Below are positions 1 through 4,189 of a DNA stretch of 4,189 nt, piece by piece. The notes below the pieces were generated by a model. It had not been told where the DNA came from and did no database searches. It worked only from the letters and a program-made list of their open reading frames with translations. Origin of the DNA: a virus (lineage: Duplodnaviria > Heunggongvirae > Uroviricota > Caudoviricetes); IMG/VR virus record IMGVR_UViG_2681813225_000018; one strand, 5' to 3'. Every line of letters begins with the position of its first letter. Within the stretch, counting starts at the first letter, position 1. A program made the translations under genes and the position numbers.

Positions 1-1
1 A

Positions 2-562
2 CTGCGTCGTCGCCTGTTCCGCTGTGTCTCCATCCGGGAAAACACGGACGGCACCTTTGCCATCACGGCAGTGCAGCACGTACCGGAAAAAGAAGCCATC
101 GTGGATAACGGGGCGCACTTTGACGGCGACCAGAGCGGCACCCTGAACAGCGTCATCCCGCCGGCAGTGCAGCACCTGACGGTGGAGGTGAGCGCGGCTG
201 ACGGCCAGTATCTGGCACAGGCGAAATGGGACACGCCGCGGGTGGTGAAGGGTGTGCGCTTCAGTCTGCGCCTGACCAGCGGAAGCGGAGAAGACAGACG
301 TCTGGTGACCACCGCCATCACTGCGGATACAGAGCACCGTTTCAGTGGTCTGCCGCCCGGGGAATACACCCTGACAGTCAGGGCAATTAACAGTTATGGC
401 CAGCAGGGCGAACCGGCCACCACCACGTTCAGGATTAATGCACCTGCGGTATATAGCGCGGCGATTTTTTTGATACCGATTTGCATTTCATTTGATACAG
501 CTGAAAAACGCCGATACGCAACTTATTTGATACTAAATCGGCGCTTTTCTTTTGAGTTTTAG
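2..562 (+). pseudogene. J: 3'-truncated fragment of a lambda J-like host-specificity (central tail fibre) protein; frame is open at the window start, J-like sequence ends near 448, then the frame runs through terminator DNA to TAG at 560-562
   Basis: Frame starting at position 2 translates to LRRRLFRCVSIRENTDGTFAITAVQHVPEKEAIVDNGAHFDG...GLPPGEYTLTVRAINSYGQQGEPATTTFRINAPA, which I recognise as the fibronectin-III-like middle region of lambda-family J proteins. The last 38 codons (VYSAAIFLIPICISF...) are low-complexity, cover a hairpin/T-tract and do not look like protein. The C-terminal receptor-binding portion expected in an intact J is absent. Confidence 0.6.
504..553. terminator. Candidate bidirectional intrinsic terminator between the convergent J fragment and mom
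   Basis: AAAAA (504-508), then stem CGCCGAT (509-515), 21-nt loop, ATCGGCG (537-543), then CTTTTCTTTT (544-553). An A-tract on one side and a T-tract on the other gives a U-run after the stem on both strands. Lies 27 nt past the mom stop codon on the - strand. The loop is long for a classical terminator. Confidence 0.45.
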
Positions 563-579
563 AATGAGTTTTTAAGCGC

Positions 580-1317
580 TCATTCACTCTCTTTCAAACC
601 AGCTTTAACTGTTTGTGGTTTTGGGTAAGGCTGGACTTTGAATAGCTTTGTGTTGAGGCGTTTTCTGGCCCTCTTGTTCAGAAACCGGATGTAACGAAAC
701 TGTCGGAACTTATGCACACTGGCTCTGTCGATATTAGCCCTCAGATGTTCACCTCGTTGTCCGCCTCGTTTAATGGCATTCCTGCAAATCTCGTGATACC
801 ACTCGCCATCAAGTTCATAGAATGTTGATTCATGGCTGCCTACATAATCAAAATTGCTTGCCTGATACACGACACCAAGACAGCCACAACGCTCATCTGC
901 AAACGACTGAACCCACTGTACCTGCGGATAAAGCTGCCTGATTAGCTTGAGCGCGTAACTGATTGCCCTTGATTCGGAGTTTCTCGGCATACAGTCATGC
1001 ATCCATAGCCGGTTAAGCTCCATATATTCTCGGTTCTGCGTACCCGTTACGACGCGTGCACCACTGTTTGGGTTAAGGGCGTAACCCCATTGCATTACGC
1101 CAACAAGTTCCCGTTCTGAAAATATGCCCAGATGAAGGTAGGAATTATTTACGAAACGGTGGCTGTAATGTTTATTGACGATAACCAGTCTGGCCAGCCA
1201 GCAACTTATTGTCTCAACCCGCAACTCACGGGAGCCATAACCAACGATATTGTCGTTATAGCGAATAAGTTCAGGCGTGCTGATGATACGGGATGTGACT
1301 TGCTTTCTGTTCCCCAC
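580..1317 (-). CDS. mom: Mom-like DNA adenine modification protein (Mu Mom family, predicted acyltransferase-like), 245 aa, GTG start
   Basis: 245-aa ORF whose 5' end overlaps the 3' end of a clear Com homologue by 47 nt, which is the Mu com-mom arrangement. AAGGAA ribosome-binding site 9 nt upstream of the GTG at 1317-1315. Start codon lies inside a predicted hairpin (see 1312-1343). Assignment rests mainly on synteny with com; I cannot align to Mu Mom from memory. Confidence 0.6.
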
Positions 1318-1471
1318 GACAGGATTTCCTTGTGTATGTGGGGTGCTCTGTGGCGCTCGGAGATGTGATTTGATTGAGGGTTTTACAGCGCGGACATTTT
1401 ACTTCCAGATAACTGAAACTGGCCCGTGCCAGTAGCTTATTGCAGTGTCGGCACCGTATGTTTCGATACAT
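1271..1471 (-). CDS. com: Com-like zinc-ribbon translational activator of mom, 66 aa
   Basis: [35 protein letters not shown]... closely resembles Mu Com as I recall it (MKSIRCKNCNKLLFKADSFDHIEIRCPRCK...), with the same CxxC-x15-CxxC spacing. Strong AGGAGG ribosome-binding site (1487-1482) 10 nt upstream of the ATG at 1471-1469. The track ORF's upstream ATG at 1516 has no ribosome-binding site and adds non-homologous residues. Stop at 1271-1273 lies inside mom. Confidence 0.8.
1312..1343 (-). promoter_or_regulatory. Predicted translation-inhibition hairpin in the mom leader, sequestering the ribosome-binding site and GTG start
   Basis: On the - strand, CCCCAC (1343-1338) pairs with GTGGGG (1317-1312), a 6-bp G/C-rich stem. 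The 20-nt loop contains the AAGGAA ribosome-binding site and the 3' arm is the mom GTG start plus second codon. Matches the known Mu mechanism in which Com opens a start-site hairpin. Confidence 0.4.
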
Positions 1472-2094: not shown

Positions 2095-2340
2095 TTACAT
2101 CATAGTACCGTCAGTTCCGGGCTGAACCGGCTCTGGTTGCTCTACGGGTTGAGGCTCATTTTCCGTGCTGTTTTCAGCCGGAGAACGACCAACCATTCGG
2201 GCCAGCACTTCATCAACATATGCGTCGATTTGTGCCTCAAAATCCTTGCGAACCTGCGCCTTCAGCACGCGGTTCACTTCTTCAGAATAAAGTGCCTGTT
2301 TGACAAGCTCTTCAGTAACCGTGCCTTTAATCTCTGGCAT
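2095..2340 (-). CDS. Hypothetical small acidic protein, 81 aa; resembles the small conserved proteins found after esterase genes in lambdoid late regions
   Basis: Strong AAGGAG ribosome-binding site 8 nt upstream of the ATG at 2340. Sequence is helix-like and charged (MPEIKGTVTEELVKQALYSEEVNRVLKAQVRKDFEAQIDAYVDEVLARMVG) with a Pro/Glu-rich tail. The overlapping + strand 123-aa ORF looks non-coding. Confidence 0.6.
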   Translation of the reverse strand: MPEIKGTVTEELVKQALYSEEVNRVLKAQVRKDFEAQIDAYVDEVLARMVGRSPAENSTENEPQPVEQPEPVQPGTDGTMM

Positions 2341-2375
2341 GAATATTCTCCTTTCCTTTTCTGGTTCACAAAAAA

Positions 2376-2555
2376 TTAAATCTGACCGGAGTCTTTCGGC
2401 TGCGGCATTACAGCACCGCTTTTTATCTTTTCCTCGGCAGCTGCATCAATTTTATTTCGAAAATAATTGCGAATAATTTTATAACCACCGCTGACAAGCA
2501 ACAGACAACAAACCACCGTGCAGAAATACAGCAGGCAGACGTTTATATATGTCAT
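2376..2555 (-). CDS. Small single-pass membrane protein, 59 aa (below the ORF-track length cutoff)
   Basis: Hand translation from ATG 2555-2553 to TAA 2378-2376 gives MTYINVCLLYFCTVVCCLLLVSGGYKIIRNYFRNKIDAAAEEKIKSGAVMPQPKDSGQI: one hydrophobic segment at residues 5-22, then a basic/charged tail. GTGAGG ribosome-binding site 5 nt upstream. Sits tightly between the esterase gene (57-bp gap) and the 81-aa gene (35-bp gap). Confidence 0.45.
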   Translation of the reverse strand: MTYINVCLLYFCTVVCCLLLVSGGYKIIRNYFRNKIDAAAEEKIKSGAVMPQPKDSGQI

Positions 2556-2612
2556 ATAAGCCTCACTCTTATTAACTGATGTTACAGCCGGATAAATTCC
2601 CGGCCGTCACGA

Positions 2613-4189
2613 TTATGCCGCAGGGGTATTAACCTCAAGGACAACGCTCTCAAAAGACACGCCATAAGTTGCCCCTTTGGTGACATCTGTCAGTGTCAGC
2701 GTATCTTTGGCAGGGGAAAGTGCATCTTTCACCATCTGGAATGCCTGGCCCGGAGTGCCATCCAGCACAGGCGTTACCTGGGCACTTCCCGCCGTAAACT
2801 TCAGGACAAGTGTATGCCACTGGTTATTGTAGGCTCCAAATGATCCCAGTTTCGTATTCCCCCCTGTTTTATGGTGCATCAGATTTAACTGGCCGCCTGT
2901 TGTCTGGAGATAATACGCCATCAGGAACGGTGTGCCTGTACCACTCATGGTTACACCTTCCGGGACCGTATCGGTGTGGAGGTAAATACCCAGAGCAAAC
3001 TGGCCTTCTTTTACTTCACCTGACAGACGGAATTTACAGGTCAACTGACCACCATGCTTCAGAAGTTCACCGGCTGCATCAGTTCCATGGGTAAGCGCCC
3101 AGGTTTTTCCGCTTTGTTTGGATACGGTCAACGCTTTACCTTCGTCCGTCAGCTGGATTGTACCATCTGTAATTTTCCAGCCCTGAGCCGGGGCTTCTCC
3201 TGCTGATGCTTTAAGTGAAAGCAGCGTACGGAGTGACGGGGATGTCGGATGGGGGGACTCACTGCCTCCTGGCTGACTACCTGTCGGCGCTTCCGGTTTC
3301 CCACCCGGCGCGGGCTGAGGCAGGGCTTCACCATCAGGGGCCACACCGGCAATAAATGCAGAGGTCAGACCTGCATATTTAAGAATTGCTGATGCAAAAC
3401 GATCTGAGACCAGAAAACGGCGCGCCCAGGAGCTAAAATGGGTTGCCCTGGATGCTGTTGTCCAGTTGCCATCTCCCCGTGATTCCGCACCATAATACCC
3501 GGCAGAAGCGATATCCGGGTCGTGCTCCGGCAGGTTGGTCGCGGTTTTATTACCGAACTCATCGTGCATCAGTGGAACAAAGTGAATGTTCTCGGAAGCC
3601 CGGTTTTTATATCCGCTATAAATGGTTTCATATGCCGCCGGGTTCTTCTCTTTCCAGTCATAGGTTGTGTCACCACATAACCACGGCACACTGTCTGATG
3701 AACCACCAATACACTGACCGGAGAAAGCACCAAGATCCGCACGGAATTTTTTCACCATCGCAGTAAACTGGGCACCATGCTGGGCCGGGGTCGCTTTAAG
3801 GTCTCCTTCCCCCTGAATCCATACGACAGATAACAGCACATTCTTTGGATTCGCCTCAAGTGCCGCTTTAGTTCGACTGACAAGATCCTGATACAGTGGG
3901 GTATCCACTCCCCAGCGTAGTGACGCCTCGGCTGCACCACTTGCCGGATCGAATGAGCCAACTGCGCCGGTTGTAAAAGCAGAGCCGCCACGGGCACAGG
4001 GAACCAGTAAAATCCCGGCATCAGCAGGAATCACCGGTAATACTTTTTTCGCAATATGAAGTCCCTGCCCCACACAACCATACTGCCCTTTTTTCAGGTC
4101 TGCTTTTGGATGGTTCAGCAGACTCATATTCTGAACATCATGAAGGCAGTGATCTGCTGGAATGATTTCATTGTATTTGCAGGGAATAC
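2613..4189 (-). CDS. Partial (5' end outside window) SGNH/SASA-type esterase resembling prophage sialate O-acetylesterases (NanS-p-like), with a Pro-rich linker and a C-terminal beta-rich domain
   Basis: 504-aa ORF from the track; the frame stays open upstream of the ATG at 4127 to the window edge (...IPCKYNEIIPADHCLHDVQN-MSLL...), so the true N-terminus lies beyond 4189. Contains LLVPCARGGSAF, which matches the conserved glycine block of SASA esterases as I recall it, then a linker PQPAPGGKPEAPTGSQPGGSESPHPTSP and a ~200-aa C-terminal domain. The expected N-terminal GQSN catalytic motif would lie outside the window. Confidence 0.65.
   Translation of the reverse strand, partial: IPCKYNEIIPADHCLHDVQNMSLLNHPKADLKKGQYGCVGQGLHIAKKVLPVIPADAGILLVPCARGGSAFTTGAVGSFDPASGAAEASLRWGVDTPLYQDLVSRTKAALEANPKNVLLSVVWIQGEGDLKATPAQHGAQFTAMVKKFRADLGAFSGQCIGGSSDSVPWLCGDTTYDWKEKNPAAYETIYSGYKNRASENIHFVPLMHDEFGNKTATNLPEHDPDIASAGYYGAESRGDGNWTTASRATHFSSWARRFLVSDRFASAILKYAGLTSAFIAGVAPDGEALPQPAPGGKPEAPTGSQPGGSESPHPTSPSLRTLLSLKASAGEAPAQGWKITDGTIQLTDEGKALTVSKQSGKTWALTHGTDAAGELLKHGGQLTCKFRLSGEVKEGQFALGIYLHTDTVPEGVTMSGTGTPFLMAYYLQTTGGQLNLMHHKTGGNTKLGSFGAYNNQWHTLVLKFTAGSAQVTPVLDGTPGQAFQMVKDALSPAKDTLTLTDVTKGATYGVSFESVVLEVNTPAA

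Follow-up and report, generated by a model that had tools for sequence, protein, structure and literature searches.

A stretch of Escherichia coli phage DNA that very probably spans the right end of a Mu-like prophage of the Sp18 type, inserted by transposition into a lambdoid gene J

Genes typical of a lambdoid tail, of a Mu-type anti-restriction operon (com-mom) and of the esterase region of Shiga toxin (Stx) phages follow one another within about 4 kb of the virus record IMGVR_UViG_2681813225_000018 (Caudoviricetes). The locus raises the question of how they came to lie side by side. The stretch of 4,189 nucleotides that we analysed is called the window here. An earlier note, made from the sequence alone, had taken the three blocks to come from different parts of a phage genome or from different phage types, meeting at a recombination hot spot or in a decayed composite prophage. 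Our analysis indicates that the window is very probably the right-end junction of an Sp18-type Mu-like E. coli prophage that was transposed into the lambdoid gene J. Two phage types do meet in the window, because J is of lambdoid type and positions 452-4189 belong to a Mu-like element; the second and third blocks, however, are parts of one and the same element. The apparent three-way mosaic is then a nested insertion, one mobile phage within another. Both this kind of prophage-in-prophage event and the element itself are already known, and J is a new target site. J joins the list of prophage genes struck by Sp18-type phages, which are known to reshape the prophage pools in E. coli strains that produce Shiga toxin (STEC).

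The boundary between the two phages can be placed to the base. The J gene of phage 2851 runs ...GCACCTGCGGTA CCCGCCACC... (GCGGTA|CCCGCC), and the window changes to TATAGCG exactly at that point, between positions 451 and 452. In the uninterrupted gene, the remainder of J past the breakpoint, on the C-terminal side, begins CCCGCCACCATTGAACTG.... J is broken after nucleotide 2205 of 3555, that is, at codon 735 of 1184, and its C-terminal 450 codons are lost, so that the earlier note was right in seeing a degraded lambdoid prophage. A complete J of about 1130-1190 amino acids (aa) with its C-terminal receptor-binding region is not found in the window. On the other side of the boundary, the terminus TATAGCGCGGCGATTTTTTTGATACC (starting TATAGCGCGG...) begins at window base 452 and is unchanged in 17 loci with 17 different flanks. 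These flanks are J in the window, a lambdoid tail chaperone gene, an Stx2c phage, ucpA, pspG, the gabP-gabT interval and sorM (in strain Sakai), and ten further chromosomal flanks were recovered by exact lookup of the Mom protein. There is no sequence homology across the 451|452 junction. Because the exact terminus adjoins 17 unrelated flanks, and because complete copies are bordered by 4-bp duplications, we conclude that the J boundary was produced by transposition and not at a recombination hot spot.

The ends of the relatives give further details of this mobility. Four matched end pairs are bordered by the 4-bp direct repeats AGAA, GGTG, CGTG and TAAA. Two empty sites were rebuilt on the assumption of a 4-bp duplication, and they agreed with the uninterrupted sorM and ucpA of element-free genomes in 156 of 156 bases each. 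In LC727881, a 4-bp duplication of this kind appears in the depositors' annotation, beside an "inserted Bacteriophage Mu-like phage". The opposite (left) terminus of the element is ...CACCTGGTTACA, and both ends, read inward, have TTTGATACC in common, in register, at bases 18-26. In addition, three direct 16-nt repeats ending in TTTGATAC lie at 461-476, 483-498 and 518-533, and TTTGATAC occurs three times where 0.18 occurrences are expected by chance; these terminal repeats are likely transposase-binding sites. In the window itself, the last four bases of J, GGTA (448-451), are the predicted target duplication and would be found again at the far end of the element.

The terminators that the earlier note placed between its blocks bear on the same boundary. 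Strong hairpins do exist at 1750-1779 and 2066-2085, inside the Mu-like element. At the first boundary, a structure reported by the terminator scanner at 444-461 draws one half from J and the other from the element, and shuffled sequence folds just as well (z = +0.63); it is a chance structure and not a terminator. Since this hairpin straddles the junction and folds like its shuffles, no terminator lies between blocks 1 and 2.

The remainder of the window explains where the second and third blocks come from. Features were called in the window from profile scans and a list of six-frame open reading frames (ORFs), and are as follows.

1-451, plus strand: internal fragment of a lambdoid J gene, about codons 585-735 of 1184 (Ig_J, E = 1.3e-42; 98.0% identity to J of phage 2851)
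452-579, minus strand: right-hand end (attR) of the Mu-like element of Sp18 type, its terminus identical at 17 loci
580-1317, minus strand: mom, DNA adenine modification (anti-restriction), the last gene before the element end (PF25680, 5.8e-77)
1271-1471, minus strand: com, zinc-ribbon translational activator of mom (PF10122, 3.3e-12)
1472-1749, minus strand: AT-rich com-mom control region, GC content 0.38, with GATC sites and a palindrome at 1515-1539
1696-1716, no strand: heptamer tandem repeat (GTAGTAT)x3, whose copy number differs among relatives
1750-1779, minus strand: intrinsic-terminator-like hairpin, a 13-bp stem followed by UUUCCCUUUU (-21.5 kcal/mol, z = -6.8)
1886-2056, plus strand: small 56-aa zinc-ribbon ORF with two CPAC motifs and a Shine-Dalgarno sequence, AAGGAG, at 1871-1876
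2066-2085, no strand: GC-rich hairpin (fold z = -3.8 on the plus strand and -4.0 on the minus strand)
2095-2340, minus strand: DUF826 gene (PF05696, 3.1e-15)
2376-2555, minus strand: gene for a DUF1378 small membrane protein (PF07125, 9.2e-24)
2613 to beyond 4189, minus strand: homologue of the NanS-p family of sialate O-acetylesterases (SASA and DUF6645; residues 162-685 of 685 lie in the window)

All three kinds of genes named by the earlier note are therefore present: the lambda-type tail gene, the Mu-type com-mom pair and, from 2095 to beyond 4189, the Stx-phage-type esterase region. Its AT-rich control region was confirmed as well, as a non-coding trough of GC content 0.35-0.39 around 1500-1900. 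The J part has a GC content of 0.62, compared with an average of 0.48 across the rest of the window.

The order esterase, DUF1378, DUF826, small ORF, com, mom and element end matches Sp18 of E. coli O157:H7 Sakai (NC_002695.2, about 5040970-5079734) and 15 other copies, and every relative examined has block 2 directly next to block 3. Sp18 has identical termini and a 4-bp target duplication. Its right end carries ECs4992 (invertase), ECs4993 (esterase), ECs4994 (DUF1378), ECs4995 (DUF826), ECs4996, ECs4997 (com) and ECs4998 (mom), and its DNA is 98.5% identical over window positions 450-2354. Sp18 differs from the window element in that it sits in sorM instead of J, that its esterase and DUF1378 are other alleles (51% and 59% protein identity), and that the long ORF ECs4996, open in Sakai, is broken in the window type, with an unequal heptamer copy number. 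A complete copy that is 100% identical was found in strain OkiPb01685, where the element is 39,193 bp long and lies inside a lambdoid tail-assembly chaperone gene. Its order is Mu-type head genes, contractile-tail genes, invertible fibre genes, a gin-like recombinase, esterase, DUF1378, DUF826, small ORF, com and mom; further along the element are mor, lysis genes, gam, an AAA ATPase, a Mu transposase, a ner-like gene and a repressor-side gene. Past the element, the lambdoid tail operon that it interrupts continues (T, tape measure, L, J and so on). Genes for a MuA-type transposase and a MuB-type ATPase are present in the complete relatives, and in the present copy they would lie outside the window.

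Sp18 has been predicted to be intact and is not circularised, and its DNA is efficiently packaged (PMC2669165). The regular right end of this packaged, predictedly intact phage consists of com-mom, the zinc-ribbon ORF and the esterase module, which are therefore phage genes in their native position and not host cargo. We therefore consider it very improbable that three sources were joined by recombination at a hot spot or in a decayed composite, with com-mom and the zinc-ribbon gene left over as an island useful to the host. Some exchange in these phages does speak for such a history: Sp18-type elements carry different alleles of the esterase/DUF1378 cassette, a C5-methylase takes the place of mom in one relative, canonical Mu is without the esterase module, and decayed right-end remnants exist. 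These points are outweighed by a J boundary that matches, to the base, a terminus of 17 independent insertions, by the junction's lack of both homology and a real terminator, and by the contiguity of blocks 2 and 3 in every copy, Sp18 included. Furthermore, Mom of Mu serves to protect the DNA of the phage and is kept under tight repression in lysogens, which argues against a role as host cargo. Reading the window as a nested insertion thus guards against annotating com-mom or the esterase as a stand-alone island.

Transposition of these phages to many sites, including sites in other prophages, is known. Mu-like prophages occupy different loci across O157 strains (PMC7430833), and in closed genomes of clonal complex 119 (CC119) STEC, six of ten Sp18-like phages lie within other mobile elements, with insertions into Stx phages noted (PMC10132054). 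The Mu-like phages of CC119 STEC (e.g. Mu_JNE082796, LC727881; PMC10132054) resemble the window in that an Sp18-like phage was transposed into a lambdoid prophage. In the Stx2c phage LC727881, the right terminus of the inserted element agrees with that of the window in all of its first 26 bases and in 92% of its first 101 bases, but the target gene is not J and the esterase is a third allele. It was also observed that this element keeps com, while mom is replaced by a 350-aa C-5 cytosine DNA methylase (PF00145, 2.1e-42; locus L002, 6963-8015, minus strand). The slot beside the right end thus appears to swap DNA-modification genes.

Several observations weigh against our interpretation and lead to two further alternatives. 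The exact 47-nt junction was not found in species-representative genomes, IMG/VR or JGI metagenome contigs, so that it rests on one sequence. It speaks for our interpretation that window positions 446/452-4189 occur at 99.6-100% identity in 42 of 5,426 complete E. coli genomes (megablast), none of which joins them to 1-451, and that no phage record covers at least 80% of the window. None among the phage records joins J to mom; the arrangement as a whole has no intact example there, whereas its second and third blocks are found contiguously in Sp18. A junction unique to this sequence might be an assembly chimera in which J was wrongly joined to a Mu-like end, both being repeated in several copies within STEC genomes; J and Sp18-like sequences match at up to 15 places in one genome. 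Misassemblies, however, join inside shared repeats, and here the switch falls at the terminal base with nothing shared on either side. An exact switch at the terminal base of the element is what a real insertion produces, and we regard a chimera as hardly credible.

The termini and the duplication also depart from the Mu paradigm, and they do so consistently across relatives: the right terminus of Sp18-type elements ends in ...CTATA (TA and not CA), and 4 bp instead of 5 bp are duplicated. In the searchable literature, we found no discussion of a 4-bp duplication or of a TA right terminus in Sp18-type phages. In addition, the window holds one element end only. Right-end remnants exist elsewhere, as strain 2014C-3011 (NZ_CP027591.1) has a truncated copy at pspG. 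The element might therefore have transposed into J as we propose and now be a truncated right-end remnant instead of a complete 39-kb prophage. The copy in 2014C-3011 is a precedent for this, and inverted NanS-p paralogues in lambdoid prophages give some homology, with only about 68% DNA identity. All element genes in the window are nevertheless intact and match those of complete elements at 99.6-100% identity, and most of the relatives inspected are full length. We consider a remnant unlikely, and this copy is presumably complete.

In 2014C-3011 itself, the esterase of the remnant has no N-terminus and lies directly beside an integrase fragment and elements of the IS66 family (locus L006, 1-1300 and 3007-7500). 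A separate gin-like recombinase with an esterase fragment lies about 2 kb away, beside dusA. This suggests that an inversion or a deletion split one element in that strain.

In the mechanism that we propose, an Sp18-type Mu-like phage would have inserted into J by transposition, with base 452 as its own first base. Going inward, one would meet putative transposase-binding repeats, mom, com, a terminator, the convergent zinc-ribbon ORF and the NanS-p esterase/DUF1378/DUF826 module. The insertion would take the receptor-binding C-terminus of J out of frame and leave the recipient lambdoid prophage, whose J is of the Stx-phage type, without a functional tail-tip gene of its own. The broken J frame reads 36 codons into the element DNA and stops at 560-562. 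If the lambdoid late operon is expressed, this frame could yield a shortened J protein that ends in a few foreign residues.

The comparison with Mu (NC_000929) shows how far the element follows its relative. Mu likewise has com and mom, overlapping each other and with GATC sites upstream, as the final genes ahead of its right end, and further inward it carries a gin-type invertase and invertible fibre genes. However, the gap between gin and com is 95 bp in Mu and holds no esterase module, whereas the element has about 2.7 kb with four genes there; and the right end of Mu starts TGAAGCGG, whereas the right terminus of the Sp18 type is TA. Canonical Mu makes 5-bp target duplications and has TG...CA termini. 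Sp18-type elements have neither, and gin does not directly precede their com-mom, which places them outside Mu sensu stricto (Muvirus).

Mom of the window is 79.5% identical in protein sequence to Mom of Mu and lies at the same distance from the right end as in Mu. The PF25680 match covers positions 1-202 of the 202 of the profile, as in a full-length Mom-family protein, and the exact protein is indexed in 577 blocks of a public collection. com lies directly upstream of mom and overlaps it by 47 nt. Com is 46% identical to Com of Mu and conserves C7, C10, C26 and C29, as expected of a Com protein; its PHROG is 'gpCom control of modification'. By homology and from the established biology of Mu, com-mom would be a late anti-restriction operon with Dam/GATC-type control and Com-dependent translation. 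Five of the 13 GATC (Dam) sites of the window lie within 1519-1691, upstream of com (1519, 1532, 1642, 1653 and 1688), and the corresponding region of Mu has three. This cluster recalls the Dam/OxyR-controlled mom promoter of Mu, from which the position of a promoter and the regulatory details may be extrapolated. No convincing alignment was obtained between the region upstream of com and the gin-com region of Mu, and a sigma-70 promoter scan gave 4 sites against 4.8 in shuffled sequence, which is no excess. A local CCCAC/GUGGG hairpin covers the GUG start of mom in both the element and Mu, with z-scores that are not significant; it may be said to agree with Mu-type control, and we do not count it as evidence.

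The terminator-like hairpin at 1750-1779 would shield the mom control region from minus-strand read-through. The hairpin at 2066-2085 lies between the convergent zinc-ribbon ORF and DUF826 and has weak T tracts; it is plausibly a bidirectional terminator, although the terminator scan did not report it. Between the terminator hairpin and the GATC cluster, the heptamer GTAGTAT (1696-1716) varies from 1 to 4 copies among the 17 near-identical loci. This variation is probably neutral slippage.

The 56-aa zinc-ribbon ORF is the C-terminal third of Sakai ECs4996 (locus L012, 5627-6091, minus strand). The ORF and its start are kept in all variants, and the sequence upstream of it has indels of 1, 7 and 8 nt. 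Its homologues fall into only 4 clusters, of which both named ones are from E. coli, and no Pfam or PHROG family was found above threshold. In Sakai, ECs4996 is an open ORF of 154 codons, whose window counterpart is 1586-2056 (plus strand). Three indels set the window type apart from it, one of 1 nt near 1616, one of 8 nt in the heptamer repeat and one of 1 nt near 1892, and RefSeq treats the window-type counterpart as a frameshifted pseudogene. We considered whether the heptamer might act as a coding phase switch of a long ECs4996-type ORF. The three indels sum to a multiple of three, which keeps this idea alive. It is unlikely, because two separate 1-nt indels occur besides the heptamer change; furthermore, no evident Shine-Dalgarno sequence precedes the long ORF, which also overlaps the control region of mom.

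The third block is likewise part of the element. The esterase matches NanS (PDB 3pt5, 7e-88) and the C-terminal domain of NanS-p (PDB 6yp6, 7e-42), and it combines a SASA catalytic domain with a C-terminal DUF6645 domain, as NanS-p proteins do. In OkiPb01685, the full-length gene encodes 685 aa (locus L001, 22163-24220, minus strand). The NanS-p proteins of Stx and lambdoid phages (933W L0105, phi24B gp84; 6yp6) have the same two domains, with DUF1378 and DUF826 genes next in order. The esterase-DUF1378-DUF826 module of lambdoid and Stx phages lies upstream of the holin gene (PMC10462455). The Mu-borne module differs in that no lysis cassette follows it and that its carrier is a myovirus-type transposable phage. 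The sequences are also distant, as the lambdoid NanS-p proteins are only about 55-61% identical to the Mu-borne esterase. The best identity to lambdoid/Stx-phage copies is about 60%, compared with 51% to Sp18 ECs4993 and 55% to the lambdoid copy in the same OkiPb01685 chromosome (locus L001, 2491-4455, plus strand). DUF826 is 98.8% identical in protein sequence to Sp18 ECs4995 and 47% to the lambdoid copy, and DUF1378 is a divergent allele, whose protein agrees with Sp18 ECs4994 in 59% of residues and with the lambdoid copy in 53%.

Within the Sp18 lineage, the cassette between about 2355 and about 4200 is thus allelic, and its flanks have 93-98% DNA identity. A megablast search with 2355-4189 against 50,697 phage records gave no match. 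Because there is no such match and only about 60% protein similarity, recent transfer from any deposited phage is ruled out. The Sp18 lineage bears the module between its gin-like invertase and com, and since canonical Mu has only 95 bp there, the module is an addition in this lineage. Modular exchange has clearly occurred over evolutionary time in the right arm of the Mu-like lineage, and not at the J junction.

The N-terminus of the esterase falls outside the window, and its domain content was read from full-length relatives. The DUF1737 N-terminal domain is absent from the 685-aa protein of OkiPb01685 and from Sp18 ECs4993 (locus L012, 2939-4978), and it is present in the lambdoid copy of OkiPb01685. 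The first ~108 residues of the window-allele esterase do not align with the lambdoid copy. A 2026 preprint describes DUF1737 as the capsid-binding anchor of phi24B gp84. One could go further and regard the Sp18 lineage as a distinct Mu-like branch, marked by a 4-bp stagger and a TA terminus, that captured a lambdoid esterase and swapped DUF1737 for the ~108-residue N-terminus, with the esterase possibly displayed on the virion and the heptamer modulating anti-restriction. As a whole, we hold this to be quite improbable; only the 4-bp duplication and the loss of the domain were directly observed among its parts.

In OkiPb01685, the recipient prophage has its own esterase-DUF1378-DUF826-holin module about 17 kb from that of the element and inverted relative to it (locus L001, 2491-5349 and 21645-24220). 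The two modules share about 68% DNA identity over 769 bp, which is probably too low for efficient homologous recombination.

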